From contig JAGWOI010000003.1 in assembly GCA_028870995.1 (NCBI GenBank), forward strand, positions 39,955 to 103,954: 64,000 bases of DNA, written 5' to 3'. The position numbers were made by a program, and so were the translations under genes. Origin of the DNA: Candidatus Omnitrophota bacterium (GTDB lineage Bacteria > Omnitrophota > Gorgyraeia > Zapsychrales > Fredricksoniimonadaceae). Under the pieces are notes generated by a model, which was not told the origin of the DNA, did not search any database, and saw nothing but the letters and a program-made list of their open reading frames with translations. Positions 5,896 to 64,000 of the stretch are shown piece by piece. Position 1 is the first letter of the stretch. The number at the start of each line of letters is the position of its first letter.

Positions 5896-5924
5896 TTGAC
5901 AACATTTGCCTTAGAGAGTAGTAT
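5896..5924 (+). promoter_or_regulatory. sigma70-like promoter for glnA (TTGACA-17nt-TAGTAT)
   Basis: TTGACA at 5896-5901 and TAGTAT at 5919-5924. Confidence 0.45.
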
Positions 5925-28900: not shown

Positions 28901-31900
28901 TAAAGGTGCTTGATCCAAATGAGATCAAAGGCTTACCGCAGCAGTTCACAGAAAAGCAGCAACAAGCCCATCAAAGCCTCGTTTATAAAAAGGACGTCAT
29001 CCACGGCACAGAGTCATTGATGGTCATGGATAACGAAAACTACGGCCGTTATACCGCCAAATATACGGCGGATCAATTTACCAATCCTGAAGGCCAGACC
29101 TCAAAATTAAGCACGGTCTTAATTCCTGAATACCGCCCCGATTTTATGGGAGGGCAGGTGCCGTATGTGACACGCGAGTACAGCGGTGCCGGCAAACTAA
29201 TGAAGGAAAGCCTGACCATTTCCATTGATGCCGTCACCCAGGTGACAACCGTTCAAGAGAAGAACATGCGCACCGGTGAGGTGATTGAGAAGAATATTGA
29301 GCCTCTTTTCGGTAATTCGCTGACGGAATCCAAGATGGATTCTTTGGGCCGACAAGAGATTGTGAGCAATGTTTACAGCAACGACTACTTGCACGTCTCT
29401 TCCACCACGGTCATAGGCGGAACCTTGGCTGTCGAGACCAAGGGCACCTATAATCAAGCCGCTCAGCAATGGACCCTGGAACAAACCCGCTGGAATTACA
29501 GCAGGAATGCTCAACAGGAAAAAGTCCCTGTCAAATATGAGACAGTTCGCAGCGTCTTAAGTGCCGGCGGGCATTTGATCTATGAAGATACCATGTTTCC
29601 CCAAAATGTTTATGAAATAAACGGGCATACGTACACCGAAAACGACCGCAGGTTTATCCCGGAATACGACGTAAACGGTAATATCAGCCGCAGTACGGAA
29701 GGAATCATTGCCAATGGAGTTTTTACTCCCAAAGAGATTATGGAATACAGCGATTACGGTGATTTCTTTGCGGCGCGGCAATCGTTCACCAAGCGCATCA
29801 TCAATGGTAAGGAAATCATCTATTCGACCTCCCGGCTGCTGACAACGCCGGCGGAATATCAAAAAAGCGGCAAATTACGTTTCGAGGTCACGAGCAAGGT
29901 CTATGACAAGGCCGATGATCCTGCCACATGGATTGAGACGACTGACAGGGACGGGCATTTGGTCGAGAAATCCCTGCAGGTTTATGACGGCCAAAATCTG
30001 GTCGGTGAACAGGTCACGAGTTTCAGTAATTTCAATGTCCAGAATATTCCTGCTCAATCCACCACCTTTATCCGCCAGGGCGCTGCGAATGAGGTGCTTT
30101 CCACATCTATCGATAAGACTTCCCTTGAGGAGGCCAGGCTTGGCCTGGAGAGAACAGAGATCACCAATCAATTCAACGGCCTGGTCCGCCAGGAATTAAG
30201 AGACCGGCGCGGCCGGGTCATCGAAAACGACATTGAAGGCGTCGATCCGGTGACCGGACGGCAGGAGGTCCAGCGAAAGACTGTTTTTTATAATTTTAAC
30301 GAGTTCGATATTGCGGTTGATTCCGTTACAAAGTCCTTGCTGGAAGGGACCTTCACGCCGTACACGACATCCAAACTTTTGTCGGACTACAACGATATCC
30401 TGACCAATCACAGCATCCGTTTTCATGTGCATAATGATTTCTTAAGCAGCACGGCTAACAGCGTGGACTGGCAGGAAGTCAAGGACTATCACGGACACGT
30501 CATCGAATTGGACAAGGGGCATATGAATCCCAACGGCCAATTTGAGGCAACTCGCAAAATCACGTCAACCTATCAAGGGATCCCGGGTCTGATCGATGTG
30601 GCCAACAGCACCAGGACAGTCATGGTCATTGACGGCAAACCCGGGTTGCTGACCGATCAGAGCCATTTGATCACGGCGCATGGGGTGACCATTGACGCGC
30701 ATAATATCAACACCATTCCGGCCCAGGATATTTTTAACGGGGTGCACAAGGTCCGTTACCAAGGCATCAGCTATTTTACCGAATTGGAGGGTATGACGTC
30801 AACGGACCGCGATTATCAGGAGATAAGAAACAGCCTCGGTAATGTGGAGGTTACCCTGTTCGGAACAGTTGACCCGCAGGGCCATTTTAACAAGAACCGC
30901 AGCTTATACCGTGTTTATGGGACGACGGAAAATAATTTCAGCAACTTTGATATTGCAAAAGCCACTGTGACGACAGTGGGTGATAAAGGGCATGAAGAAG
31001 TGGTTTCTTATTCCAACAACACCCACATCACGGACGATGACCGGTACCTAATTTATAAGACTAAAAAGGGGCTAGGGGCGCAAGGACTTGTCCTGACCAA
31101 TGACGTGTTCGCTAATCTTGGCGCCATCACCGCCCAGGTCTCAGGACCGGAACACCAGTTGGATTTGACCCATCTGACAGAGACCATCAGCCAGGTCAAG
31201 GATTCCGAAGGAAGGGTTATATTTACCTTTTCAGGTTTTCCTTCCCTTAATATCAACGGATTCGGAACTGGCAATCCCGTCTTTGTGACGGTCAACCAGT
31301 ACCAGGAAAACAGGATCAGCCAGCCGGTGGCAGCCCACAGCCAGACTTATTTTTGGAAGAAAGCCATGGGGGATTATGACCCCACGGATAATTTCAATCA
31401 ATTGAAGAACTATATTCATAACAACCATCCGACGGTGATTGCCTCGCTCGACAACCTTATGTTTGACAAAGGCGTTGCCACCTATAAAACCGATGATATG
31501 AGGGAAGTCGGCTTGCGCACCGTGTCCATGCGTCTGGACGGGACCATGTACCGTAATTCTTATCAAGGCTCCGGTGTGGACGGCCCGGCCTTGTTTAATT
31601 TGTATTTTGACGAGCATGAATTACCCAGTTACGGCATGGAAATAGGCCCGAGCGGGATCGAAAAACCGTTCTCTATCTATAGACCGACCTTGTTTAACTA
31701 CGGCACCAATCTTGTACCGTATGTCTTGATCGATGAATTCCGTTCCCCGGAAAAAGGCGCTAATAATGAATTTGATTTTCAAAATCAGAAACCTCACGCT
31801 TCCATCCTGATGCATAACGGTACCATCCAGTTGGTACGCACAGGCTCAGCCGTGCGCACAACGCCGTTCTCTTCCATGTTCAGTTTGGGTGATTTGGAAA

Positions 31901-34900
31901 GGAACGGCGTATTCGGCAAGGCAGTGCGCCTTATTCATGAAACCGACCCTGAGAAAATTATGGACGCTGGCCATCAACAAGCCCAAAGCGGAACAGCCCA
32001 GAGCTATGTTTCTTCGTCAGCTAAGAAAATAACCTTTGAGCAAGAAACCTGGGGACAGAAGGCGGCATGGCTGGGACAACAGGCAGGCTTTTTGTTAGGG
32101 TCATTAGGATTCATGTACGCCGTTGTGCTGGCTGCCCGTATCTTCGGTTTTTCAACCAGCTCGCTTCGTTCATTACGGAAAAAAGACATCAATTCCGCCT
32201 CCCAGCAAAACTTCGAAGATCTTGGCTTCACCAAAGAGCAAAGCCAAATTATTCTGGACGAACGTTTCAGGAACGGCGCATTTTTAAGCCATCAGGATTT
32301 CAAAGACCGCCTGGGGGTAAAATTAAGCAGTGCCCACAAGCTTTCCGAGAAATGGCTGCCCAAAATGATTGCCAAGGCCCGCTTCTGGCTTGCCATGCAA
32401 GAGGTCTCATGGGCCAATGGAGAGGTGCCAGCGGAAAAAAGATTCAATACTCAAGACAGCCTGAGGCTGGCTGCCGCAGCCGATGACTCCGTCGTTGATT
32501 TCATGGCTGAACTTAAAGGCCTGTACGGTCTTAAGCCCGAACAGCAGGCGTCTTATGAAAGCGCCCTAAGGATGTTTGGGAAATACCTCAAGGCCGAACA
32601 ATTGCGCGATATTGTCAATACACCGCATTTCCGGTCTCTGGTCGATCATTACAGCAAACAGCGCGCAGCGGAAGTCATCTTGAAATTGATGTTTGAGAAG
32701 ATCCGCGACAATCAGGATTATAAGAATGCCGTCAGGCAGCGCGTTGACGATATTATCAGCAGCACAGGGATGGGCCGTGAATTCCCTGACCAGATTTTTG
32801 CCCTTAAGGACACCTTCCTTAAGAATATCGAGAATGCGCGGCTGCTTCCGGAAGGCCTGCGTTTCCATGATTTCGATATCAGCACGGATTTGCTGGCTTA
32901 TTCCTGGGATGACTTGCGCAAAGGCCCGGACATGGAGCGTCAGGTAAGAAGCGACCTTGTGTCCATCGAGAAATTGTTTGTCTTCCAGGTGATCTTCCAA
33001 AGGGCCCTCTTCGGCCTGGCAGGCCAGGGCAGGGCGGAAGAATATTTATGGGCCAAGTATGTTTGGCCTTCCATAAACAAGCGTCAAGCCCTGAACGACC
33101 CTGATATTCTCCAGAAGATCAAAGCCTTCAAACAGGTCTTTCATGCCTTGCTGCTGGATGAAGTCAATAAACGCCTGGAAGGCAACCGCGATCCCAAAGG
33201 CAAGGTGCTTTATTTTCAGAATATCGTTAATGAAGAGGTGTATAACGATGCCTTCCGTTATTTGTTAGGCCAGAAAGATCCCACCCTGGCTGATGCGGGT
33301 TGGACTCTGTCCGATGATGTCAAAAAGAAGACAGCGCCTATTAGAGAAAAATTGGAAAAGGCCCTGGCCGACATTAATGAGGTCATCGAACTGCCTTCAG
33401 AACAAAGGGCTGAAGAAGTCAAAACGAAAGCGGAAAAGATTAAGCCCCTGGTCCTTGCCTATGTCGGCGCGGTTGATCAACAGATCGGTATGCCGGTGCT
33501 CAAAGGACGCCTGTCTTATTGGCAGCTGACCGTCAACCCCTTGCTTAAGATACTGGGTAATAAAAAGATGCGCCAGCGGATTTTTTCCAAAGGCGGCCCC
33601 TACAACCAAAGCGCGCATGACCTGGTGCGGCGCCTCAATCATTATATTATTTTTGGATCGGTTGCCGTGATGTTTGCCGGCCTGACCCTTAACCTGTTCA
33701 GCGTCTTTCCCTTCATGGTCCCGCCGAGCTTTATTATGGCACCATGGTCCCCTTTGTTGGCAGGCGCGGCCGCCACAGTCACCTCCTTTGTCGGTTCATG
33801 GCTGGTCAAAAAAAGATTGATCAGTTCCTTAAATAAGAAATTAAAGAACGTGAACGAAGAACAAAATAAGGGGAAGAATAAAGAACAGCAGGAAAAGGTC
33901 ATTAAATCGTTCGGCTCCAAGGTAAAGTATCTATACCTTGCTCAAGCCGGTCTTGTCTTAGGCTCCTTGCTGTTGATGCCCACGCTGGCACCGGCGCTGA
34001 CGGCGTGGCTGGGCATTGCTCCTCAAATGTTACCGGTAGCTCCCTTCATTCGTTTTGCCATCCATCTGATACCGGTCATGATCTTCATCGATACCTGGCG
34101 GTTGTCCTTCTATGCCATGAACCATCTGGTTTCAGCCATGGCCTTGCAGCAATATTATGCCACCAATAATGTTTACGAAATCAACAATAAGTCCAGGACA
34201 GACAAAATAACCGGACGTTTAATGGCCCTTTTTAAAGATACCGCTCCGGCACTGGGGACTGTTTATAAAACGCGCGGCCAGGAACGCCTGGCCTCCTTTG
34301 TCAATGTGGTGGATGAAATGACCAGCGAAAAGGACAATTATTTCTTCGCAAAAAATATCGATAAGCAAGGGAAATCTTCTTTGACCGCTAAGCTTTCTCA
34401 ACTGGCAGGGGAACTGGTGGATGCTCAAGGCAAGCCTGATGCAGACAAGATAAGAGATCTGCAGGAAGAAATCGAAACATTTGTGGAAAAAGTAGCAATA
34501 CCTATCAATGTGGAAGGGAAAACAGCTGCCAAATCAGAGAAGCTTGGGCTGCAGAAGCTGGTTGATTTTGTTAATCATAACTACCGCCTGGATAAGGGGG
34601 CGAATCCTTCAACCTGGGGCCATGTGATTCCCACGACCGTGGCCATTATCGGCTACAGTGAAGACTGGTACTTTACCAACGGCGAGCTGCTGGATATCAA
34701 CCGCGGAACGTTCGAAGAGTCGACGATCATTGGAAAATTTGAAAACAGTACGACTGGCCATGACGTCCTGGATAAATTGCTTAAGCACGGCATTCTGCTT
34801 CAAGAAGGCTTAATGTCCAGGAAGGAAGAATTTAAGCGTAAGGTGCGCGTCAACGTGGATTTAAGCGACAAGGAGATCAAACAAATAGCATTGAATGCGG

Positions 34901-37900
34901 GCATAGATGAAAGCGATTTTAATAAAATCGCGCCTCTCCTGAAGGAATGGCGCGACGCCCAGAATGAAGCACAAGAATTTACCCATCGCCTGGGCATGCT
35001 GGCCAAATATAAAACAGAATTGTTCTTGCTCATGGTCAACCGCTTGACCAAGCCAGACTCCCTTGAACGCACAGAGCTTTTGAAAATGATCGATGATCCG
35101 ACCCATGTCCCTGAAGGCATCCTGGACTGGGAGATCTGGCCGCAGATACAGGAATGGGCCAACCTGCAGTTGCCAACGGGCTATGCCAATGCAGTGACCC
35201 AAAAACGTACCCTGATGCGTTTATATACGCATTATGCCAGAATATTCGGCGTAGCTAATCCCGAGGCCGCTGCTGAAGAGAAGATCCGTGTCATTGACCG
35301 CAATCTTATGGCCATGGATGCTTTGAATAAGGTGCTGATTCACGCCGTTGCCAAGACCACCTTTATTAAAGAATTCACGCAAGGGGAGCAGATTTTTAAT
35401 TGGTTGATGGGAAAAGGGTATTTTTATAATGAAGGCAAGAAACAAAATCCGCCCGTGCCTCCGGTTGATGGTCTTCCCAAACCATTGACAGCAGATTCTA
35501 AGAAAAAATTAAAGGAGCAATTCCCCGGGGACTATGAACGTATTGTTCCCATCCTGGAAGAAGCCGGCAGGGGCAGATTAAGAGAGATGCTGGATGTTTT
35601 GATTGAAACAGGGTATCAAGATACTTATAAAGTTTATCCGGATGGGACAAGCAGAGGTGTAAAGGATCCCTATAAGCTTATTAAGGACAATCAAGACAGG
35701 ATCATGGGGGGGATTGATAAAATTAGATACGATATCGATATGTTGACAAAGTTGATGGATTCCATCAAGTATGACCGGCTGTTCCCGGCCAGGTTAAAAG
35801 GCGGAGGGGTAGACACCGCCGATTTATTAACGGGAGAAAATTACCATGGCGCGAAATGGAACCAGAAAACAGCTATCCTGCCTTTCCTGGTGGGACCGGT
35901 TATCCTTAACCTTGATGCCGACCACCGTGCCAATTATGTGGATTACGAATCCCTTCCCAACCATTTGCTGGATTACAATTATTGGCCCGGCCTGGCTGTT
36001 TCAACGCCCATCGTCAAGCACACCTTGACCAAGGGCTTGGGTGTTTTCGGGAACATCCTGCCGGTCTCGGAGAATGCATTTTATTATCATGCCCAGCAGG
36101 CCAAGGAACTTTTCGGCGGCTTGACCGCGACGGGAAAGCTCTTCGAAAGGGTCTCAGCCCTCCGGCATTCCGAGGGAGTTACGGATTCTTATGTCGCCGA
36201 GGATGCGTTGTCGGCAATCAATTACCGGCGGTTCGGTTATGTCACCGGCCGCGCAGGCGCAGTAAAGGTGGAAAAGGGCTGGCCGTTCTCTTTCGCCGCG
36301 GCATCAACCCCGACGAGGAAGTGGTCTTATGACTCGGTGGAATCCGTCAGCGGCAGGACCGCCATGAAGGTGTACATGTCTCCGCTGGTTGACTGGCCAT
36401 TCCTGGTCAACAATTTCTGGCTGGACGGTTTTGGGTTTTATTTCAAGAAACCGGGGATCGTCCGCTATCTGCGCTGGCTGGTGGCGTTCTACCTGGTCAT
36501 GGATTGGAACCTTTTTTCCAACATTCCCCTCTCCATGTGGGTCGGCAGCATGATGCTTTCCCAGTCCATCAGCCAGGGCTTGTTTTTTTATAAGATATTC
36601 GACGAATCGCGGGGCTATGTAAAAGGCACGCTCAGCGCTTTGGGCAGCATTGCGGCCAGGATGTACAGTTATTTTGTGCATCAGGTCTTTGTTTTTGAGG
36701 AAACGGTGGGCAAACTTGCGCCCAACCGTTTGGGTAAATTCCTTTCAACGGCCTCCAAAGGGTCCAACCAGACCCGCATACAGAACAAGGACCTGATGTA
36801 TGTGCGCAGCAATTATGCCATCAAATCAGCCTCTGTTATGGCGGGGGTGACCTTGACCTTGATAGGTTTGTCCCTCAAAAAGTCCGGTTTATGGGCTCTT
36901 ACCCTGGGCATGGGTTTTGCCGGGGTGGCTGCACCGTTTTTGTTAAATCCGGTGCGGATCAGGAAACGTGTAAAAGATAATTTCAGCAATGGGAAGGATA
37001 TTGGAGGCGCTTTTGTCTGGGGCCTGACGGACAATGTGGAAATGCTGATGTATTATCTCAGCGGGTTATTGGCGCGCGTAGGGATAAAATCTTTTCGTTC
37101 AACAGAAGATGACCTGCAGATCAAGGTCTTAGACATGGTCCAGGCCAGAGTATCTCAGCCGTTGGACAAAATCCCTACCGGAAAATGGGGAACGACCTTT
37201 AAGGAAGCCTTTGGTCAGCAGGCCGAAGCCGCGGCTGAATTGGCCGAATACATATATTTATTCCATCAAAAGCCCAGCCATTATCGCAGCATGTATGGCC
37301 GTTCCGTCCTGCCTGCCGTTAACGGACTGTTAAAGATCCTGGCCAATAATCCCGGAAAAGAAGGAACGGATTATTCAAAGAAAATATTAGGGGATGAATT
37401 GGGGGCCTATAAGGAAGCCTTGGGGGTCCGCTTTAAGGAAGTTAAACAATATTTGGAGGTTTTTAAGCATGCCAAGGGGTATGAAAAAATGGTCAGAGAC
37501 GCCGAAAAACAGCTCGCTAAGGCGGATGAAATTTTAAAAAAGACTTCACCGTCAGCAAAGCAGCTGAACCGTGCCGATTGGTTGTTGACCCAGCTTTCCT
37601 GGATCCCGATGCGTATTCAGCGTCAACCTGGAACAATATCAAAACTGAGAGACCAATTTTTAAACACCATGATCGGCGTTGATGCCGTCTCTCAATTAGT
37701 GGCTTTTGCTTGGCTGCCTCTGCGATTATTCTTGGACAGGATAACAAGGACCCCTAAAACTGTTGAGAATGAAAAGAAGGCCTTGGAAATACCGAAATCC
37801 ACCGTTGTTCCTTTGGCGCCCAAAGCCGCGGAAGATAAGGCCATGGCAAGTTCTCCCAAACCCGCAGGAGTCAATAGGATTGCCAAGATTACCAATCCCG

Positions 37901-38085
37901 GCGGTATTGACCTTTCCAAAACAAGGGTCAAAGTCAGTGCCAGGAGTACACCCATTAAAATCAGCTACGATGATCCCGCTTTATTGCGTTTGTTGTTGAA
38001 TGCCGATGGGCTTGCCCCTATAATTTATAGCGTAAGAACAATGACCCCATCCATGGCTGATCATTTTGTAGGTTTGGACTATTGA
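22966..38085 (+). CDS. giant (5,039 aa) secreted / polytopic membrane protein of unknown function
   Basis: A single uninterrupted 15,120-nt ORF in the ORF track. It has an N-terminal signal peptide (MIKANKTPLVWLVILAFSVNTLITGPVFA). There are no internal stops, and none of the ORFs on the other frames or strand exceeds 173 aa. The amino-acid composition is ordinary along its whole length. Domain hints are given in the findings. An RBS-like AAGAAAG lies upstream. Confidence 0.7.
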   Translation: MIKANKTPLVWLVILAFSVNTLITGPVFADVPFLPAPGRLVPLTPSFSPPIILGLKVFKNNPFKFEFVMSEGDRAPGPDSVARRAFLKAEGDKLVKYFLASLTIPQKDMWVNLSPYEHDRIIAPEFGITEMGKQMLAQDYLLKQVTASVMYPNGAVGREFWGKIYREAYKRFGTTNIPVSTFNKVWILPDKAEVYENQVDNTAVIIKSSLKVMLEEDYLALRKSSLPGEVHKDSSADRQLSNELIRQIILPLIEKEVNTGKNFAGLRQVYNSLILAFWYKNKLKESLISKGYVNRKKIHGVEVKDKNIDEEIYRQYLKSYKKGVYNFIKEEVDPSTQETIPRKYFSGGIVWDNLGRQMSTVFGRDSAQAASLILKSAKTFELTVGLEEIQHASSGNPLYLDLNSITSSKPLFSAQDITRLNEAITDTRNFLEPEPVEDAAMLGTTTRRWAAALVGLALLAGANTVYAKGAYDPMPQQPAATNGLSATSAPSTAPSTAADLNHLLSNTVTNAVNPLQMPGPQALTNTTANANPTNQMSANDRDKFALDLRNDQNWTKLQDTLLSPDAPYFVIVNTSKTNTYSIIRSFDKWLGDGSGHDPQSYIDFVYGSGSSPDNQPNVTFKIRVPPPASQGKVDISTIDSWTQIVNPDQIKQIQLDRKTIYVQVFWKDKDGHAQSGVVYAGPKAALTVQHMMNDAQLDNDLTQKILKITSIPDYEEQINTILKTSGLPEAGTNDVSKEGGIIVGAYVQRDQFGSITSVTGWIHARDIDTQIVKGTDDKPHLVLYNNGKDPQILKYWPYGQDIDVFSVLTPAELNMLHDPQTADLALNKYLYNLGGSPLERGGIVFGKNKYIKKMMEVEAQKAIAEHDKQATKEYLHYLKVSEKADLLFSAASGGLSAVGINAPVNAVGDILVDMKYQPEKIGQYVPTAEELQQLFNEYNAQQPKEDQVVLKNGRFETVKGFYTQRDIELLDGWLVKRNKEKTAAFILQQVSRMAVIASYYTPTKTKSSGAYRFQVPENDALYHFLAQDVGSFLGEFNVAGLYNTVSSHGLQYVSLGNLLNKGSFLNKLTSVLGVTINGQSLINEITGRKVFELAPSKTRINFYVLGFPISHFFEEDLVANIDKILNDRDSYAFIVKDGHFRSVAVAFTKDQFQALYKSAVPIGKISNISPVDGRPMSVPVYEVETISPSGEHIHQTMVFTLKALEQAGLDVRRDLERYDNFTKMLNEGGAVFHYGSDGGTLSQNIYTGLFKSFSQQGMDDFPSAYTFDQAGADRFFIEMGNFQSAKWNLDFFFDVMKAQLKLSGQFQGLSKSYNAYNGADASDQPDIGGTSMMAQTIMAYEKSTGDKKYHLLLTESIKWLLKVQKENGGKALPDTPGGHLFNPEPNAIAFAALHNFGTIYNDKDALLAADQIRQWAAGLWDKENFLIKSPNGNYPADNNTRWLQALGPKAFMETFLDNDPVKLGKFLRAMEKTFGVTVINYHTGQTVHLLDLADQQKADGRLTNDQHTPNHRIGFPEVTAEFLQGLIDSRPYLTREDAAFADQLIAKYSGQLQAMTDRNGNLPQATDKGKDSGYNGLTILGNHSLASGVQYQFMVLGLDPLHLDGPRGNALGLKPDKIEIPPVLSFNTLNQGAVIKPGETNYLQMSRYFNQLIIDEHAHHNRNLIYHDPINNLHFVYINTADHIVDARLIPSPKEIQKQVVLAGEDAQMTALKSQALNGQGAFPHGGVIFQTPDGKRLGMLRGVEGQSDAVEDVLSAVGQLPVQEQSFINYKGFSNFMLHNYKVDGVHQDVMVTVVFPLHKSIVHDVKDDHNVITTSIYEGGRLRFIINDNTTTVMNYDDATGVESTTTSYHNFAGGREAMVKMLSDSSKPLAERQALFNGQHPSNKTTTVWAGYIDPTLSMDRVDPNEVWIIKRSTNLDTGHVTTQGYGLFTRPVWEADQFTVTENHFDQSGSFTHAEQFQNTGTLQTPQKGQELFEIKVLDPNEIKGLPQQFTEKQQQAHQSLVYKKDVIHGTESLMVMDNENYGRYTAKYTADQFTNPEGQTSKLSTVLIPEYRPDFMGGQVPYVTREYSGAGKLMKESLTISIDAVTQVTTVQEKNMRTGEVIEKNIEPLFGNSLTESKMDSLGRQEIVSNVYSNDYLHVSSTTVIGGTLAVETKGTYNQAAQQWTLEQTRWNYSRNAQQEKVPVKYETVRSVLSAGGHLIYEDTMFPQNVYEINGHTYTENDRRFIPEYDVNGNISRSTEGIIANGVFTPKEIMEYSDYGDFFAARQSFTKRIINGKEIIYSTSRLLTTPAEYQKSGKLRFEVTSKVYDKADDPATWIETTDRDGHLVEKSLQVYDGQNLVGEQVTSFSNFNVQNIPAQSTTFIRQGAANEVLSTSIDKTSLEEARLGLERTEITNQFNGLVRQELRDRRGRVIENDIEGVDPVTGRQEVQRKTVFYNFNEFDIAVDSVTKSLLEGTFTPYTTSKLLSDYNDILTNHSIRFHVHNDFLSSTANSVDWQEVKDYHGHVIELDKGHMNPNGQFEATRKITSTYQGIPGLIDVANSTRTVMVIDGKPGLLTDQSHLITAHGVTIDAHNINTIPAQDIFNGVHKVRYQGISYFTELEGMTSTDRDYQEIRNSLGNVEVTLFGTVDPQGHFNKNRSLYRVYGTTENNFSNFDIAKATVTTVGDKGHEEVVSYSNNTHITDDDRYLIYKTKKGLGAQGLVLTNDVFANLGAITAQVSGPEHQLDLTHLTETISQVKDSEGRVIFTFSGFPSLNINGFGTGNPVFVTVNQYQENRISQPVAAHSQTYFWKKAMGDYDPTDNFNQLKNYIHNNHPTVIASLDNLMFDKGVATYKTDDMREVGLRTVSMRLDGTMYRNSYQGSGVDGPALFNLYFDEHELPSYGMEIGPSGIEKPFSIYRPTLFNYGTNLVPYVLIDEFRSPEKGANNEFDFQNQKPHASILMHNGTIQLVRTGSAVRTTPFSSMFSLGDLERNGVFGKAVRLIHETDPEKIMDAGHQQAQSGTAQSYVSSSAKKITFEQETWGQKAAWLGQQAGFLLGSLGFMYAVVLAARIFGFSTSSLRSLRKKDINSASQQNFEDLGFTKEQSQIILDERFRNGAFLSHQDFKDRLGVKLSSAHKLSEKWLPKMIAKARFWLAMQEVSWANGEVPAEKRFNTQDSLRLAAAADDSVVDFMAELKGLYGLKPEQQASYESALRMFGKYLKAEQLRDIVNTPHFRSLVDHYSKQRAAEVILKLMFEKIRDNQDYKNAVRQRVDDIISSTGMGREFPDQIFALKDTFLKNIENARLLPEGLRFHDFDISTDLLAYSWDDLRKGPDMERQVRSDLVSIEKLFVFQVIFQRALFGLAGQGRAEEYLWAKYVWPSINKRQALNDPDILQKIKAFKQVFHALLLDEVNKRLEGNRDPKGKVLYFQNIVNEEVYNDAFRYLLGQKDPTLADAGWTLSDDVKKKTAPIREKLEKALADINEVIELPSEQRAEEVKTKAEKIKPLVLAYVGAVDQQIGMPVLKGRLSYWQLTVNPLLKILGNKKMRQRIFSKGGPYNQSAHDLVRRLNHYIIFGSVAVMFAGLTLNLFSVFPFMVPPSFIMAPWSPLLAGAAATVTSFVGSWLVKKRLISSLNKKLKNVNEEQNKGKNKEQQEKVIKSFGSKVKYLYLAQAGLVLGSLLLMPTLAPALTAWLGIAPQMLPVAPFIRFAIHLIPVMIFIDTWRLSFYAMNHLVSAMALQQYYATNNVYEINNKSRTDKITGRLMALFKDTAPALGTVYKTRGQERLASFVNVVDEMTSEKDNYFFAKNIDKQGKSSLTAKLSQLAGELVDAQGKPDADKIRDLQEEIETFVEKVAIPINVEGKTAAKSEKLGLQKLVDFVNHNYRLDKGANPSTWGHVIPTTVAIIGYSEDWYFTNGELLDINRGTFEESTIIGKFENSTTGHDVLDKLLKHGILLQEGLMSRKEEFKRKVRVNVDLSDKEIKQIALNAGIDESDFNKIAPLLKEWRDAQNEAQEFTHRLGMLAKYKTELFLLMVNRLTKPDSLERTELLKMIDDPTHVPEGILDWEIWPQIQEWANLQLPTGYANAVTQKRTLMRLYTHYARIFGVANPEAAAEEKIRVIDRNLMAMDALNKVLIHAVAKTTFIKEFTQGEQIFNWLMGKGYFYNEGKKQNPPVPPVDGLPKPLTADSKKKLKEQFPGDYERIVPILEEAGRGRLREMLDVLIETGYQDTYKVYPDGTSRGVKDPYKLIKDNQDRIMGGIDKIRYDIDMLTKLMDSIKYDRLFPARLKGGGVDTADLLTGENYHGAKWNQKTAILPFLVGPVILNLDADHRANYVDYESLPNHLLDYNYWPGLAVSTPIVKHTLTKGLGVFGNILPVSENAFYYHAQQAKELFGGLTATGKLFERVSALRHSEGVTDSYVAEDALSAINYRRFGYVTGRAGAVKVEKGWPFSFAAASTPTRKWSYDSVESVSGRTAMKVYMSPLVDWPFLVNNFWLDGFGFYFKKPGIVRYLRWLVAFYLVMDWNLFSNIPLSMWVGSMMLSQSISQGLFFYKIFDESRGYVKGTLSALGSIAARMYSYFVHQVFVFEETVGKLAPNRLGKFLSTASKGSNQTRIQNKDLMYVRSNYAIKSASVMAGVTLTLIGLSLKKSGLWALTLGMGFAGVAAPFLLNPVRIRKRVKDNFSNGKDIGGAFVWGLTDNVEMLMYYLSGLLARVGIKSFRSTEDDLQIKVLDMVQARVSQPLDKIPTGKWGTTFKEAFGQQAEAAAELAEYIYLFHQKPSHYRSMYGRSVLPAVNGLLKILANNPGKEGTDYSKKILGDELGAYKEALGVRFKEVKQYLEVFKHAKGYEKMVRDAEKQLAKADEILKKTSPSAKQLNRADWLLTQLSWIPMRIQRQPGTISKLRDQFLNTMIGVDAVSQLVAFAWLPLRLFLDRITRTPKTVENEKKALEIPKSTVVPLAPKAAEDKAMASSPKPAGVNRIAKITNPGGIDLSKTRVKVSARSTPIKISYDDPALLRLLLNADGLAPIIYSVRTMTPSMADHFVGLDY

Positions 38086-45845: not shown

Positions 45846-45847
45846 GT

Positions 45848-45876
45848 TGACAAGGGCCGCTCCTTGCCTTATATTG
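45848..45876 (+). promoter_or_regulatory. sigma70-like promoter upstream of carA (TTGACA-17-TATATT)
   Basis: TTGACA at 45848-45853 and TATATT at 45871-45876. Confidence 0.4.
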
Positions 45877-59652: not shown

Positions 59653-59842
59653 CTTGTGGCTCCTTTTGGGCTTTACGATGCTTTCTTCGATTATAAATTG
59701 AAGGGCAGGGGTGTCAACCTTAAATAATAAACCTGCTTTTAGAGATGTGCCGCTACCAAATATATATTTATTAGATAGGCGGCCAACGATATTTGTTGAC
59801 GGCTATCAAGCTTTGAGATATCCTTACATCTTCTTAGATATC

Positions 59843-59920
59843 GGCCCCATCGTCTAGCCTGGTCCAGGACGTCTGCTTCTCAGGCAGAAAACACCGGTTC
59901 AAATCCGGTTGGGGCTACCA
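59843..59920 (+). tRNA. tRNA-Glu (anticodon CUC)
   Basis: Hand-folded. Acceptor GGCCCCA/TGGGGCT (G·U at 1-72), D-arm GTCT…AGGAC, anticodon stem TCTGC/GCAGA with loop TTCTCAG, T-arm ACCGG-TTCAAAT-CCGGT, discriminator A and CCA. Confidence 0.8.
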
Positions 59921-59929
59921 AAAATATAA

Positions 59930-59959
59930 GGGACACGTTTGCGTGTCCCTTTTTATTTT
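59930..59959 (+). terminator. rho-independent terminator after tRNA-Glu
   Basis: GGGACACG-uuug-CGUGUCCC followed by UUUUUAUUUUU. Confidence 0.6.
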
Positions 59960-60029
59960 TGAGGCTTCCTTCCTTAAAATAGAATAGCCGGCAAGCCGGC
60001 GCTTTTGATGATCCGCCTTTCTTCTTCGA

Positions 60030-60120
60030 TTTTTAATTCTTTTTTAATCTCTTCTTTAGGAAACTTCAGTTAAAAAGGAACTAACCGGGCGAAATAGAGG
60101 TATAGGCAGTGTTGGAAAGG
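60030..60120 (+). repeat. conserved ~90-bp intergenic element, copy A
   Basis: tttttaattcttttttaatctcttctttaggaaacttcagttaaaaaggaactaaccgggcgaaatagaggtataggcagtgttggaaagg. It is about 80% identical to copy B at 63376-63470. Confidence 0.45.
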
Positions 60121-60134
60121 GATAAACATTTAAG

Positions 60135-60203
60135 TTGCATTATTGACCTTCAAGGGCTTTTGGTCATGGATTTCACGGCTGAAGTGCTTGCTGCCTTTCT
60201 AAG
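60135..60203 (+). pseudogene. decayed 5' fragment homologous to the start of the CDS at 63818
   Basis: gaccttcaagggcttttggtcatggatttcacggctgaag… translates in one frame to LQGLLVMDFTAEVLAAFLSPPE. Compare PDLQGLLVSDFTADPLAAFLNLPE at 63827-63895. DNA identity is about 70% over 69 nt. There is no start codon, and the fragment ends at the RBS of the 60228 gene. Confidence 0.4.
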
Positions 60204-60227
60204 CCCTCCTGAGAGGAGGATTAGGCA

Positions 60228-63200
60228 ATGTTAAAACTTCTATTTTTCCTAGTGATGTCATTTGGTGTAAGTTCGGCAGCTTTTGCCACGAATTATTATA
60301 TCGATTGCCAAGGGAATGATTCCAACAACGGTTTAAGTGCTACGACCGCTTGGGCTAGTTTCAAGCCGACGGAATCGACTAATTTTTTGAAACCTGGCGA
60401 TGTGGTCAACGTTAAGGCAGGCTGCACTTTCACCGGAAGCGCTTCGGAGGCTTTCATTTATTCTGCCGGGACCGCCGCCAATCCTATTACGATCCAACCC
60501 TATGGGACGGGTGCCAATCCGGTATTTGACGCCACCGTCGATCCTTCCACGGTGCCGGGCTGGTCGGGCTGGACCGTATCCGATTCGACCAATGGCGTTT
60601 ATGTTTCCAATGTGCCTGTGCCGTGGTCGGTAAATTCCATCATCGTAGACGGAACGTATAGTTTAAGGAAATTAGATAGCTATCAATGTTCGCAGGGGGT
60701 CATAAGCAAGGAGCCCTACAGTGAATGCCAAAATGGCGCCGGCTCGCAGATTTATATTCATTTGGCCCAGGAGGCGAATCCATCAGGGCATAAGATAGCC
60801 TTCAGTAAATACGGCAATGGCGATGGGGATGGGCATACCCGCGGTCAATTCGGCGTGCACGACTCCACGGAACAATATGTTAACATCAACAATATCAGCA
60901 TTGTCGGATCGAATTCCCAGGGCTTCTCTTCCGGCGCGCCCTATGTTAATTTTAACGGTGTCAGCAGCTTGGGAGCGGCACGGGAAGGGATCTACATTAT
61001 ATCCCATGCCGTTCAGAATGGCACAGGGGCCGCCTATAATACGATCAACCAATCCACTTTTTCATGGTCTAACTCCAATTTCGGACAGCAGGTGACCATA
61101 GAGTCGCCCCATGTGGATCTGGTCGATGTGATCTCTAAGAATGGCTGGATGGCCGGCATCGATTGGCTGGATTATACCTCGGATACGAACGCCTCTTTTG
61201 GCCGGTGTATCCGTTGCATAGCGCATGACAATGGCCAGAGAAGCTGGTCTTCGGATTATAACGGCTATGATCCCGTGGGTATTTATGTTGACGGGGGGCA
61301 TGACATTCAAATCATCGATTCAGTAGTTTACCAGAGCCCCTTGCCGGCGGGCATCACCAGCCAGAACGCGATTTATGGGATCGCCTTCCAAACGGAACAT
61401 CCCAGCATAAAACCTGAATCCAATAACTTTATCATCAATAGTTTGGTTTACGGCATCAATTACCAGGATGTGCTTTTGTCAGGGGCCATTAATTGCACCG
61501 GGACCGCGTGTAATGTCAATGACAACATGGGCATGATAGGCACGACCCTCATCCGGGGAGGCTATCAGTTAATGTCCATGAATTCGCTCATACCCAATAA
61601 AAGTCTGAAAGGCGTATTTTTATACAACAACGTTTATTATAACGGCAGCAACACTGTCGGGGCAGAGCCGCTTATTAACTCTTATAATGTAACTTCCGAT
61701 TACAATGTTTATTATACCTCTCCTTCGGGGCAGTACATTTGGGATCCCAGCATAACCCTGTCGGCATGGCAAGGGGCCTCGGGCCAGGATGCCCATTCGC
61801 AATATGCCAATCCCTTATTTGCTGGATCAGGGATCACCGGCGAAATCGACCAATCCTATCATTTATCATCGGTCGCAGCCGGCCAGAATGCCAATTCGCC
61901 CGCTATAGGCGCAGCCACCCATGCACAACCGGGAAGCGCTTATGTTTATTCAAGTATTGGGACGGTACGCACGGATAACGTGGTAGACAGTTCCTCCACA
62001 CCGGCGGCGGGGTATCACTATTTGGCCAAATATTCACTTCCAACGACTGGGACCGGCGGCGGAACGCCTCCCAGCGGCGGCACCACCCCTCCCACTCCCA
62101 CTGTCTATAGTTTAACCATCTCAACTTCCGGCAGCGGTTTTGGGATGATCTTTGATGCGACCAATCTCATCAACTGCGGCGTAAACCCCGGTGCGACACA
62201 ATGCAGCGCATCCATTAACGGCGGCACTGCTGTCAGTTTAACGGCAACACCGGCGAGCGGATCGTCTTTTAACGGCTGGACCATTACAGGCTCTCAGGCA
62301 GGGACCTGCACATCAACGACCAGCCCGTGCACATTGACGGTCACCGGAAATACTACGGTAACCGCTAATTTTGGGCCAACGACGACTACGAACACGGGGC
62401 TTTCCATAACCACACAACCGGCAAACCAAACCGTGACTGTGGGGCAGACAGCGGCCTTCAGCGTAGTTGCGTCCGGGGCCCAACCCTTGTACTACCAATG
62501 GCAAAAGGACGGGGTCAACATTACAGGGGCCAACAGCTCAACGTACACAACGCCTCCCACTACAGCAGCTGATGACTGGCGCACGTTTAAAGTTGTCATC
62601 AATAATGGTACGGGTGTTCTCATCAGCAACATGGCCACGTTAAGGGTCAATGCCGCCGCTGCCACGACTCCCCCAACCGGGGGTACGACTCCTCCCACCG
62701 GAGGCACTACAGGCGGCACAGGAGCGCCTTCCATCACCACACAACCGGCAGACCAAACCGTCGCTGTGGGACAAGCAGCGACCTTCAGCGTAGCTGCGTC
62801 CGGGGCCCAACCCTTGTACTACCAATGGCAAAAGGACGGGGTCAACATTACAGGAGCCAACAGTCCGACGTATACAACGGCACCCACCACAACCGCTGAT
62901 GACTGGCGCACGTTTAAAGTCGTCGTCAATAACAGCGCGGGTGTTGCCATCAGCAACCTGGCCACGTTAAGGGTCAATGCAGCTGCTGCCACTGGGGGCA
63001 CTACAGGCGGCACAGGAGCGCCCTCCATAACCACACAACCGGCGAACAAAACAGTGACGGCAGGGCAAACGGCGACCTTCAGCGTAGTGGCCACCGGCGG
63101 CCAACCCTTGTACTACCAATGGCAAAAGGACGGTGTCAATATTGCAGGGGCCAACAGCCCGACGTACACAACGCCGCCCACCACAACGGCGGATAATTGG

Positions 63201-63281
63201 CGCACATTCAAAGTTGTCGTCAGTAATACCAAGGGCGTCGCCATTAGCAATATGGTTGTATTGATGGTCAATCAAGGGTAA
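60228..63281 (+). CDS. secreted right-handed beta-helix (pectate-lyase-like) protein with three C-terminal Ig-like (I-set type) repeats
   Basis: Signal peptide MLKLLFFLVMSFGVSSAAFA. Then NYYIDCQGNDSNNGLSATTAWASFKPT…PGDVVNVKAGCTF, the typical start of parallel beta-helix proteins. G/T/P-rich linkers follow, then three ~85-aa repeats (ITTQPANQTVTVGQTAAFSVVASGAQPLYYQWQKDGVNITGANS.TYTT.PTT.AD.WRTFKVV…LRVN). RBS GAGGAGGA. Confidence 0.75.
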   Translation: MLKLLFFLVMSFGVSSAAFATNYYIDCQGNDSNNGLSATTAWASFKPTESTNFLKPGDVVNVKAGCTFTGSASEAFIYSAGTAANPITIQPYGTGANPVFDATVDPSTVPGWSGWTVSDSTNGVYVSNVPVPWSVNSIIVDGTYSLRKLDSYQCSQGVISKEPYSECQNGAGSQIYIHLAQEANPSGHKIAFSKYGNGDGDGHTRGQFGVHDSTEQYVNINNISIVGSNSQGFSSGAPYVNFNGVSSLGAAREGIYIISHAVQNGTGAAYNTINQSTFSWSNSNFGQQVTIESPHVDLVDVISKNGWMAGIDWLDYTSDTNASFGRCIRCIAHDNGQRSWSSDYNGYDPVGIYVDGGHDIQIIDSVVYQSPLPAGITSQNAIYGIAFQTEHPSIKPESNNFIINSLVYGINYQDVLLSGAINCTGTACNVNDNMGMIGTTLIRGGYQLMSMNSLIPNKSLKGVFLYNNVYYNGSNTVGAEPLINSYNVTSDYNVYYTSPSGQYIWDPSITLSAWQGASGQDAHSQYANPLFAGSGITGEIDQSYHLSSVAAGQNANSPAIGAATHAQPGSAYVYSSIGTVRTDNVVDSSSTPAAGYHYLAKYSLPTTGTGGGTPPSGGTTPPTPTVYSLTISTSGSGFGMIFDATNLINCGVNPGATQCSASINGGTAVSLTATPASGSSFNGWTITGSQAGTCTSTTSPCTLTVTGNTTVTANFGPTTTTNTGLSITTQPANQTVTVGQTAAFSVVASGAQPLYYQWQKDGVNITGANSSTYTTPPTTAADDWRTFKVVINNGTGVLISNMATLRVNAAAATTPPTGGTTPPTGGTTGGTGAPSITTQPADQTVAVGQAATFSVAASGAQPLYYQWQKDGVNITGANSPTYTTAPTTTADDWRTFKVVVNNSAGVAISNLATLRVNAAAATGGTTGGTGAPSITTQPANKTVTAGQTATFSVVATGGQPLYYQWQKDGVNIAGANSPTYTTPPTTTADNWRTFKVVVSNTKGVAISNMVVLMVNQG
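62400..63281 (+). repeat. three tandem near-identical ~300-bp coding repeats (Ig-like modules)
   Basis: For example 62461 agcgtagttgcgtccggggcccaacccttgtactaccaatggcaaaaggacggggtcaacattacagg, 62779 agcgtagctgcgtccggggcccaacccttgtactaccaatggcaaaaggacggggtcaacattacagg, 63079 agcgtagtggccaccggcggccaacccttgtactaccaatggcaaaaggacggtgtcaatattgcagg. The minus-strand ORFs 62313-63275 are shadows of the repeats. Confidence 0.75.
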
Positions 63282-63318
63282 CGCTATGGCTCAATCTATT
63301 TTAATTGGTTTTGGAGGT

Positions 63319-63345
63319 GAAGAGGAGACACCCTGTCTCCTCTTC
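63319..63345 (+). terminator. terminator-like hairpin after the Ig-repeat gene
   Basis: GAAGAGGAGACA-ccc-TGTCTCCTCTTC, an 11-12 bp stem. The U-tract is weak (followed by aaattg). Confidence 0.4.
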
Positions 63346-63375
63346 AAATTGCCGTTAACAAAACTCTAATCCTTA

Positions 63376-63470
63376 ATTTTTAATGCTTTTTTAATCTTTT
63401 CTTCATGAATTTTCCATTAAAAAGGGAGTAACCGGGCGAAATAAAGGTGTGCAGGTTGGAAACCAGGAAA
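63376..63470 (+). repeat. conserved ~90-bp intergenic element, copy B
   Basis: tttttaatgcttttttaatcttttcttcatgaattttccattaaaaagggagtaaccgggcgaaataaaggtgtgcaggttggaaacc. Confidence 0.45.
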
Positions 63471-63507
63471 GAGCCACTTTAAGTTATTTTTTTAGGAGGA
63501 TTCTGTC

Positions 63508-63828
63508 ATGAGTTTATCCGAAGATGTGACTAAAGAGGTGTTTGCGGCCATCGATGAATTCAACTTGAGTGAACCGCAACAATGGCACATCGAAAAGGAT
63601 TTAAGCGCCGTCCTGCTTGGTGATAATGGGACGCTGGATTCCCTGGGATTTGTCATGCTCATTGTTGCCCTGGAGCGCAGGCTTGAAGAAAAGCTTGGGC
63701 AAAACGTATCTTTGACGGATGAGAAGGCCATATCCCAACAGGACAAGGTCTTCAGGACAGTGGGAGACCTGATCGCTTACATTTGCACATTGATCGACAA
63801 TGAAAGGACCTGCGAATATGCCGCCTGA
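63508..63828 (+). CDS. acyl-carrier-protein-like small protein
   Basis: 106 aa. DSLGFVMLIVALERRLEEKLG resembles the ACP phosphopantetheine-attachment region (DSL + helix II). RBS AGGAGGA. Confidence 0.5.
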   Translation: MSLSEDVTKEVFAAIDEFNLSEPQQWHIEKDLSAVLLGDNGTLDSLGFVMLIVALERRLEEKLGQNVSLTDEKAISQQDKVFRTVGDLIAYICTLIDNERTCEYAA

Positions 63829-64000
63829 CCTTCAAGGACTTTTGGTTTCCGATTTTACCGCTGATCCGCTGGCCGCGTTTTTGAACCTTCCTGAGTGGCC
63901 GTCCTGCCGGATGCAGACGCTTCGTTTCGGTGAGCCCTGCGTTCACGAAACACCGGTTGATTTTTCGGTCATCTGGACACAGGCCGCCGGCACCATGCCC
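63818..64000 (+). CDS. unknown protein, partial (N-terminus only; continues beyond the window)
   Basis: ATG at 63818 overlapping the ACP-like stop. MPPDLQGLLVSDFTADPLAAFLNLPEWPSCRMQTLRFGEPCVHETPVDFSVIWTQAAGTMP. It is homologous to the fragment at 60135-60203. Confidence 0.4.
   Translation, partial: MPPDLQGLLVSDFTADPLAAFLNLPEWPSCRMQTLRFGEPCVHETPVDFSVIWTQAAGTMP

Follow-up and report, generated by a model that had tools for sequence, protein, structure and literature searches.

Two AT-rich non-coding stretches lie on either side of a surface-protein gene in the 64-kb stretch of Omnitrophota DNA analysed here (the window). They probably (at roughly 60%) represent the non-coding front of a partly duplicated gene-start module, retained as promoter/operator and leader for both units, a function assigned from position only. 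The duplication, and the coding relic or "ghost" that accompanies it, are seen directly in the DNA. It is the kind of result that genome rearrangement ordinarily produces, and it is not a new RNA element.

A repeated element and a coding relic

Copy A (60029-60136, GC 0.31) and copy B (63376-63485, GC 0.33) are both on the + strand, one on each side of the gene for a 1017-aa Ig protein (60228-63281), and share 86% identity over aligned bases. Their GC of 31–33% compares with 53% for the window. By blastn the pair aligns over 113 columns at 79.6% identity (E 3e-19), far above chance, and a repeat scan of the window matches 60029-60101 to 63376-63448 at 85% ungapped. A sequence-only reading had described a same-orientation pair bracketing the Ig gene, which is borne out, although its length of ~90 bp becomes ~108–115 nt when measured. 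In the best global alignment, 90 columns match, 15 mismatch, and 8 are gaps, which form 5 events. The first 75 nt of the alignment are identical at 63/75 positions with no gap, and all five indels fall in the 3' third of the element.

Six + strand blocks are invariant between the copies: ATTTTTAAT (A 60029-37, B 63376-84), CTTTTTTAATCT (A 60039-50, B 63386-97), TTAAAAAGG (A 60070-78, B 63417-25), TAACCGGGCGAAATA (A 60082-96, B 63429-43), GTTGGAAA (A 60111-18, B 63455-62), and TTTAAGTT (A 60129-36, B 63478-85). Copy A consists of two tandem 11-nt T-tract units (ATTTTTAATTC and TTTTTTAATCT), a variable stretch, and a two-block core, TTAAAAAGG-N3-TAACCGGGCGAAATA, followed by GTTGGAAA and TTTAAGTT. 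The block order is the same in copy B.

Each copy is located after hairpins and ahead of a strong Shine-Dalgarno (SD) sequence and ATG. Upstream of copy A is a tRNA-Glu gene (anticodon CTC; 59843-59920, + strand), identified by ARAGORN and by Rfam (tRNA, 58.1 bits). The terminator scan places two terminator-like + strand hairpins between them, at 59928-59951, followed by a T-run, and at 59987-60000, which shield copy A from transcription of the tRNA. Ahead of copy B, the sequence contains a + strand hairpin 3' of the Ig gene (63319-63345) with an 11-bp stem (GAAGAGGAGAC/GTCTCCTCTTC) and a 5-nt loop. The earlier placement of both copies directly 3' of terminators thus stands for copy A; at copy B the hairpin is present but lacks a T-run and is not flagged as a terminator by the scan. 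As the T-run is missing, read-through from the Ig gene could still occur. The core ends 132 nt ahead of the ATG in copy A and 65 nt ahead of it in copy B; the similar 90–110 nt to the RBS previously proposed for both does not hold. The longer spacing in copy A is due to a second block of homology that had been missed.

This second block matches 60144-60216 downstream of copy A to 63826-63898 downstream of copy B, with 75% nucleotide identity (E 7e-11). The latter interval encodes the N-terminus of a gene termed gene X here, and at the protein level 18/23 residues are shared (tblastn E 2.4e-7). The nucleotide match, tblastn, and codon comparison define a + strand ghost that corresponds to the opening ~24 codons of gene X and reads in frame from position 60145 (DLQGLLVMDFTAEVLAAFLSPPE). 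This ghost sits within a 42-codon ORF, 60109 (GTG)-60234, which extends into the beginning of the Ig gene. Homology to gene X stops inside GAGAGGAGG, the SD of the Ig gene (60211-60219, + strand; assigned from sequence and codon comparison), and the junction is therefore placed there. What is missing from copy A is exactly the SD and the carrier-gene coding sequence, ~340 nt.

Both homology blocks are collinear, in the same order and on the same strand, running from non-coding into coding DNA; together with the significant protein match, this is the pattern of a segmental duplication with a gene relic. Because homology resumes in the start of gene X, copy A is, on this sequence comparison, a relic of a "leader - ACP - gene X" module: it has no ACP gene, and its X is truncated at ~codon 24, where it joins the SD of the beta-helix/Ig gene. 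The codon-position bias in the ghost/X pair gives p 0.043 against a flat expectation, and p 0.19 against an expectation in which only the B lineage is constrained.

The number of copies is consistent with a local event. A blastn search finds two in the window and no more, and nhmmer, blastn at word size 7, and mismatch patterns find no further degenerate copies there. Beyond the window, exact-pattern scans covered GTDB genomes, metagenomes, and viral contigs. The DNA pattern AAAAGGNNNTAACCGGGCGAAA matches 5 times among GTDB genomes and once among metagenomes. All of these matches are attributed to chance because no similarity extends beyond the pattern and one match lies inside a coding region; two patterns give zero matches in viral contigs. 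As the copies are collinear with a duplicated coding piece, they are homologous through local duplication and probably not members of a dispersed family. The sequence-only reading had itself named two copies arising from local duplication alone as the outcome that would count against a functional element, and this largely describes the case: two copies within the searches made, collinear with duplicated coding sequence.

The genes beside the two copies differ. The 1017-aa secreted protein has a signal-peptide-like N-terminus, a right-handed beta-helix, an InlB B-repeat, and three Ig repeats, according to Pfam, homologues, gene contexts, and a structure model with fold search. The beta-helix (residues ~20–420) is confidently modelled in the predicted structure. 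Residues 1–602 are 52–58% identical to proteins of phage structural modules, and by this homology the nearest relatives of the surface protein are in phage tail modules. A PHROGs search with the beta-helix domain returns no family, and the flanks of the phage homologues have no similarity to those in the window.

Copy B is followed by an SD (AGGAGG, 63494-63499) and a + strand gene for a 106-aa carrier-protein-like product (63508-63828), which together (63494-63828) have no counterpart in copy A. NCBI names this protein, MDE2221789.1, an acyl carrier protein; its carrier-family matches are all sub-threshold (DltC 7.6e-4, PP-binding 0.047). A homologue search returns only the protein itself, and a protein-guided locus search of GTDB genomes with it as query finds no relative. 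Exact-protein look-ups with it, the Ig protein, and the response regulator give no record of a sister strain, and the searches as a whole yield no orthologous locus in another genome. Gene X (63818-64000, + strand) begins with an ATG at 63818, inside the last codons of the carrier gene, and runs past the window end. Domain and profile searches assign it no family, a homologue search with its 60-aa N-terminus is empty, and an exhaustive HMMER search gives 6 multi-stretch matches in long proteins, judged uninformative.

Probable constraint and candidate transcription signals

Were the similarity only a trace of the duplication, copy A would be functionless, perhaps together with copy B, and the Ig gene would be expressed from another signal. 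This is a possible but distinctly less probable explanation. It is consistent with the presence of two copies only, across the window and the public collections scanned, and with the contiguity of the element and a plainly decayed coding ghost. Identity of the element and of the whole ghost (86% vs 75%) is also not significantly different, with p 0.08, or 0.27 when indel events are counted.

Comparison with neighbouring third codon positions argues against a neutral relic. The element has substitutions at 15/105 positions (14%), versus 10/24 (42%) when third codon positions are compared in the neighbouring ghost/X pair (Fisher p 0.0075; 0.021 with the ungapped 75 nt only). Conserved positions cluster into blocks, the identical runs being 9, 12, 9, and 15 nt long, and the first 75 nt are free of indels versus the five in the 3' third. 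These observations suggest that the non-coding part is probably under constraint, a comparison of two copies over ~100 nt in which the counts are low. The same signal could arise if gene conversion had acted between them. Codon comparison finds no + strand reading frame common to A and B, and no shared minus-strand frame is found by eye.

A sigma-70 promoter was taken as a TTGACA-N16-18-TATAAT site that scores 9/12 or better, carries both A at -11 and T at -7, and occupies corresponding places in the two copies; no such + strand site lies inside either copy. The absence of a recognisable promoter inside the element is a further point in favour of a neutral relic. The best match in region A is 8/12. 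In region B it is TTAACA-N18-TTTAAT at 10/12, which lacks the key A at -11 and has its -35 outside the repeat. Near-consensus sites do occur in other operon-upstream regions of the window (12/12 at 59717-59690 on the - strand, 11/12 at 45847, and 10/12 at 5896), indicating that the organism uses canonical promoters elsewhere. Against the neutral explanation, no alternative promoter lies in the 307 nt that separate the Ig gene from the terminators.

Pattern scans and reading of the sequence show that none of sigma-70, -28, -54, -32, -E, and -H fits both copies. The sigma-28 (FliA) consensus is TAAA-N15-GCCGATAA. In the pattern search the core offers TAAA-N13/14 followed by GGCGAAAT or GCGAAATA, with 4–5/8 matches in the -10 block and a short, off-consensus spacing. 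No flagellar genes were seen among the annotated ORFs, a set that covers the window except for roughly a dozen ORFs in the 22966-53337 interval. Read against the known consensus sequences, the GG-N10-GC frame of sigma-54 is absent from the element and a sigma-E-like GGAAC is found only in copy A. A literature search found no description of promoter motifs for this uncultured phylum. Of the three functions suggested by the sequence-only reading, a shared promoter and 5'-UTR is the best fit given the position, AT-richness, and conservation of the element, but neither copy contains a sigma-70 promoter.

Recombination repeat and structured RNA as unlikely alternatives

The copies might instead be a recombination or mobile repeat, serving either as attL/attR-like termini of an island beside the tRNA or as sites for loop-out of the Ig gene. 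Direct repeats do enclose a single gene with phage relatives, copy A starts 108 nt past the end of the tRNA gene, and the GC3 of the Ig and carrier genes is 0.58 versus 0.70–0.73 for core genes. However, at ~86% identity the longest identical run is 15 nt, which makes the recombination repeat suggested earlier very improbable. The element does not overlap the tRNA 3' end, no integrase or transposase ORF lies between the copies, and no terminal inverted repeats are found. Unlike att sites and MITEs, the homology extends into the coding sequence of the neighbouring operon. A tRNA-adjacent integrative element was rejected on the identity, the distance from the tRNA, and the Ig gene being the only gene-size ORF in the interval.

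A riboswitch-like cis-regulatory leader is just as improbable. In this model ATTTTTAAT pairs with GTTGGAAA and CTTTTTTAAT with TTAAAAAGG, leaving the CCGGGCGAAA core unpaired as a ligand or protein site. The invariant blocks do pair in RNAalifold, the most variable stretch forms the loop of the inner helix, and G-U pairs restrict the fold to the + strand. Nevertheless, the Rfam check proposed earlier yields no family for either copy, at gathering score or at E ≤ 10. Across the whole window Rfam finds two tRNAs and nothing else at gathering score, and in sensitive scans of the two surrounding regions (59900-60300 and 63250-63600) no match falls below E 0.1 and no family is common to both copies.

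Thermodynamic data likewise leave the small structured RNA or riboswitch of the sequence-only reading unsupported. Fold energies are weaker than those of dinucleotide shuffles on both strands of both copies (z +1.2 to +1.9), with 183–198 of 200 shuffles (91–99%, either strand) folding at least as well. The RNAalifold consensus is only -7.6 to -8.6 kcal/mol, with a column-shuffle z of -0.88 on the + strand, where 20% of column shuffles match its energy, and +0.43 on the - strand. Compensatory double changes occur in 0/24 predicted pairs, a count from two sequences only in which the paired blocks are invariant. The helices are purely A-U/G-U in a 53% GC genome, pairing of T-runs with A-runs is expected from composition, and the distance from core to start codon differs two-fold between copies. 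It is very doubtful that Omnitrophota use a lineage-specific RNA leader, with two AU-rich helices of four invariant blocks presenting unpaired CCGGGCGAAA to a ligand or protein, to co-regulate a pathway that depends on a carrier protein and a secreted glycanase/Ig protein derived from phage.

Proposed origin and comparison with known systems

Under the preferred reading of a retained gene-start module, copy B is the intact version, in which the AT-rich regulatory/leader region precedes the carrier-protein (ACP-like) gene and gene X. The version at copy A retains the regulatory/leader region and the initial ~24 codons of X, with the carrier gene absent and X joined to the RBS of the beta-helix/Ig gene. 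The non-coding part may still be selected because it carries transcription signals for the downstream genes. Besides the first part of the leader, these signals could be a regulator-binding site, a promoter outside the sigma-70 consensus, or both. As recognition sequences, the strongest candidates are the TTAAAAAGG-N3-TAACCGGGCGAAATA core and, upstream of it, the pair of phased 11-nt T-tract units. If the element does carry such signals, the surface-protein gene and the carrier-protein operon would be switched on together. As for the order of events, the sequence is compatible either with a tandem duplication and a later insertion or with a pair of ancient paralogous operons, one of which was mostly replaced.

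If correct, this is a small, clear case in which rearrangement has put a horizontally related gene downstream of a resident regulatory region. The coding fossil would record the event, and the captured gene would be a beta-helix glycanase-like gene of a type shared with phage tail modules. The TTAAAAAGG-N3-TAACCGGGCGAAATA core after phased T-tracts would in turn be a candidate non-housekeeping promoter/operator in Omnitrophota.

Several known systems share features with this locus. Riboswitches and leader RNAs in Rfam are also conserved non-coding 5' stretches of genes with an invariant purine-rich core, but the element differs in its lack of a family match, thermodynamic signal, or covariation and in its variable distance to the start codon. 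Dispersed repeats (REP/BIME, ERIC, MITEs) are likewise short non-coding sequences in more than one copy. In contrast, the element has two copies in 64 kb with no palindromic structure or inverted termini, always lies beside the same coding homology, and is absent from the public collections scanned. Activator- or alternative-sigma-dependent promoters with phased A/T tracts (UP-element-like) are closer, sharing the AT-rich upstream half with its two 11-nt phased T-tract units, two invariant blocks ~20 bp apart centre to centre, and the lack of a housekeeping -35/-10, although the element matches no named sigma consensus. Partial segmental duplication with promoter capture by an adjacent or acquired gene differs in that the promoter activity of both copies here is only putative. 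It otherwise corresponds to this locus, with two collinear same-orientation blocks of which one copy is intact and the other has a truncated coding part that is joined to another gene with its own RBS.

Two copies of a non-coding element and their setting

Two plus-strand copies of an AT-rich non-coding element bracket the gene for a 1017-aa beta-helix/Ig surface protein (the Ig gene, 60228-63281, +). A repeat search of the window aligned copy A with copy B (60029-60101 vs. 63376-63448) on the same strand at 85% identity without gaps, and blastn returned 113 columns (E 3e-19). Global alignment of 60029-60136 with 63376-63485 gives, at its best, 90 matches, 15 mismatches, and 5 indel events, with every indel in the final third. 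These alignments confirm the two-copy non-coding repeat proposed in a sequence-only reading of this DNA, with the element being real but somewhat longer than stated there. Conserved positions fall into blocks, with identical stretches of 9, 12, 9, and 15 nt; in order, the blocks are ATTTTTAAT, CTTTTTTAATCT, TTAAAAAGG, TAACCGGGCGAAATA, GTTGGAAA, and TTTAAGTT. Even with ≤3 mismatches allowed, the window has just two occurrences of the 15-mer core, and no third copy was found there by profile search, word-7 blastn, or looser sub-motif searches. Each copy has a GC content of 31-33%, compared with 53% for the window. Outside each copy the intergenic regions are unrelated, leaving the element as the sole conserved sequence there.

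Copy A lies 3' of a tRNA-Glu(CTC) followed by two terminator-like hairpins, and copy B is preceded by an 11-bp hairpin without a T-run, 38 nt past the stop of the Ig gene. Presumed transcript-ending hairpins precede each copy, and the gene after each has a strong Shine-Dalgarno site; after copy B this is a 106-aa acyl-carrier-protein-like gene (the carrier gene, 63508-63828, +). The similar distance to a ribosome binding site described earlier does not hold, as core-to-ATG spacing is 132 nt in A vs. 65 nt in B. A 15-nt near-copy (14/15) of the tRNA-Glu 3' end and flank (59752-59766 vs. 59914-59928) is found 162 nt 5' of the tRNA and is probably not meaningful, since chance would give an estimated ~0.4 such pairs in the region.

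A relic of gene X beside copy A

Homology continues right after copy A, where 60144-60216 matches 63826-63898 at 75% identity without gaps (E 7e-11), a second block which the sequence-only reading overlooked. Its counterpart on the B side is the beginning of gene X, the gene downstream of the carrier gene, which has its ATG at 63818 and an N-terminus reading MPPDLQGLLVSDFTADPLAAFLNLPEW... before running off the window. In the X frame the A-side segment (the ghost) translates as DLQGLLVMDFTAEVLAAFLSPPE, with 18 of 23 residues identical to X (tblastn E 2.4e-7). The ~340 nt present in B and absent from A are exactly the Shine-Dalgarno site and coding sequence of the carrier gene, and X homology in A stops within GAGAGGAGG, the Shine-Dalgarno site of the Ig gene. 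This collinear homology and the gap in A show copy A to be the relic of a module of regulatory/leader region, carrier gene, and X, one that lacks the carrier gene and whose X breaks off at ~codon 24, fused to a different gene. The NCBI accessions of the two flanking genes are consecutive (MDE2221788.1 and MDE2221789.1, Candidatus Omnitrophota MAG).

The start codon of X lies 8 nt before the carrier-gene stop (TGA, 63826-63828), an overlap of the type typical of translational coupling. No family could be identified for X from its 60 visible residues. The ghost is contained in a 42-codon ORF (60109-60234) with a GTG start and a GAGG 8 nt upstream, which terminates 4 nt past the Ig-gene ATG and has no counterpart in copy B. 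If translated, this ORF could allow translational coupling to the Ig gene.

Probable constraint and possible function of the element

Third codon positions of the ghost/X pair, taken as a proxy for neutral divergence since the duplication under either history, show 10 differences in 24 sites. With only 15 differences in 105 aligned positions (Fisher p 0.0075; p 0.021 for the ungapped first 75 nt only), the element has diverged far less than expected of neutral DNA. Selection or gene conversion would account for this low divergence, which argues against the element being a functionless relic of the duplication, a possible but rather doubtful reading. The ghost differences cluster at third positions (10/18), with p 0.043 against a flat expectation and p 0.19 against one in which only the B lineage was still coding. 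Conservation at first and second positions is slightly above that expected of a fully neutral A lineage (p 0.037), a hint that the A-side X copy was once a working paralogue.

Near-consensus sigma-70 promoters are found at other operon-upstream regions in the window: TTGACA-N16-TATAAT (12/12; 59717-59690, -) upstream of a FIST/histidine-kinase/GGDEF operon, and TTGACA-N17-TATATT (11/12; 45847-45875, +) and TTGACA-N17-TAGTAT (10/12; 5896-5924, +), each upstream of a plus-strand operon. These three sites show that canonical housekeeping promoters are in use in this Omnitrophota MAG. No sigma-70 promoter is common to both element regions; the best match in region A scores 8/12, and the best in region B, TTAACA-N18-TTTAAT, has no A at -11, and its -35 falls beyond the repeat. 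A housekeeping promoter in the element was thus rejected, as was a sigma-28 promoter, and none of the sigma-28, -54, -32, -E, and -H consensus sequences fits both copies.

Taking the duplication, the ghost, and their positions as facts of the DNA, the simplest reading, to which we give a probability of roughly 0.6, is that the element is a promoter/leader through which the surface-protein gene and the carrier operon would be regulated together. This retains the shared promoter/5'-UTR suggested earlier and is inferred from the position of the copies between hairpins and genes with strong Shine-Dalgarno sites, their status as sole conserved intergenic sequence, and their low GC. The element would carry a promoter for an alternative sigma factor, or an activator-dependent one, together with the first part of the leader. 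Two phased 11-nt T-tract units (ATTTTTAATnC / TTTTTTAATCT) and, downstream of them, the two-block core TTAAAAAGG-N3-TAACCGGGCGAAATA are the candidate signals.

A small structured RNA or riboswitch, also proposed earlier, is very improbable. Rfam at gathering score matched two tRNAs only and neither copy, and no credible match was found around either copy at E up to 10. Whichever strand is folded, each copy is less stable than its dinucleotide shuffles (z +1.2 to +1.9). RNAalifold does pair invariant T-rich with invariant A/G-rich blocks (-7.6 kcal/mol), but from two sequences only and with 0 compensatory pairs, and 20% of column shuffles do equally well (z -0.88). The helices consist entirely of A-U/G-U pairs, such as T-runs and A-runs form through their composition. 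Nor do the copies share a conserved reading frame. On this evidence the RNA reading was dropped as the main explanation.

A recombination or mobile repeat is just as improbable, given that the copies have no terminal inverted repeats, no integrase between them, no contact with the tRNA, and no identical run above 15 nt; the last three also led to the rejection of att sites. The pattern AAAAGGNNNTAACCGGGCGAAA has 5 matches in 185,579 representative genomes vs. an estimated ~4 expected by chance, none from Omnitrophota and none with similarity beyond the pattern itself. Metagenome contigs yielded a single match to it, which falls within coding sequence, and two patterns gave none in viral contigs.

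The bracketed gene and comparison with known systems

The Ig protein has a signal-peptide-like N-terminus, a following domain without Pfam, NCBIfam, or PHROGs matches, and an InlB B-repeat and three Ig repeats (Pfam). The three C-terminal Ig domains are encoded by tandem ~270-nt DNA repeats (62399-63286) of 77-88% identity; compared with the first, the other two score 88% and 77%, at spacings of 327 and 294 nt. Residues 1-602 (about 1-604; 60228-62040) share 52-58% identity, from the first residue, with 620-650-aa proteins encoded within phage structural modules, alongside SU10 adaptor, Dit-like, sheath initiator, baseplate wedge, Mu-gpT-like capsid, and DNA polymerase A genes. The flanks of these phage homologues have nothing in common with those in the window. 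A more distant homologue (41% identity), also with Ig domains, is cellular and lies in a polysaccharide-synthesis locus. The AlphaFold model (mean pLDDT 68, pTM 0.72) is confident at residues ~20-420, predicted to be a right-handed beta-helix, which in a fold search matches glycoside hydrolases, polysaccharide lyases, and phage tail fibre/depolymerase proteins. GC3 is 0.58 for the Ig and carrier genes vs. 0.70-0.73 for core genes. The phage-module homologues, modelled beta-helix, and low GC3 fit an accessory phage-related gene having come to lie downstream of a duplicated resident regulatory region.

Elsewhere in the window, a single 5039-codon ORF (22966-38085) has a GC3 of 0.58, lower than neighbouring core genes. 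A nitrogen-assimilation cluster interleaved with glycosyltransferases (2151-22211) encodes a GAF-ANTAR regulator, ammonium transporter, P-II, type III glutamine synthetase, NAD synthase, and the large and small subunits of glutamate synthase.

Set against MITE/REP-type repeats, the element has two copies within the 64-kb window and no terminal inverted repeats there. Collinear homology passes from non-coding into coding sequence, and on this ground the feature is classed as a partial segmental duplication, a familiar type of event, that left behind a putative promoter/leader copy and the relic of a gene.
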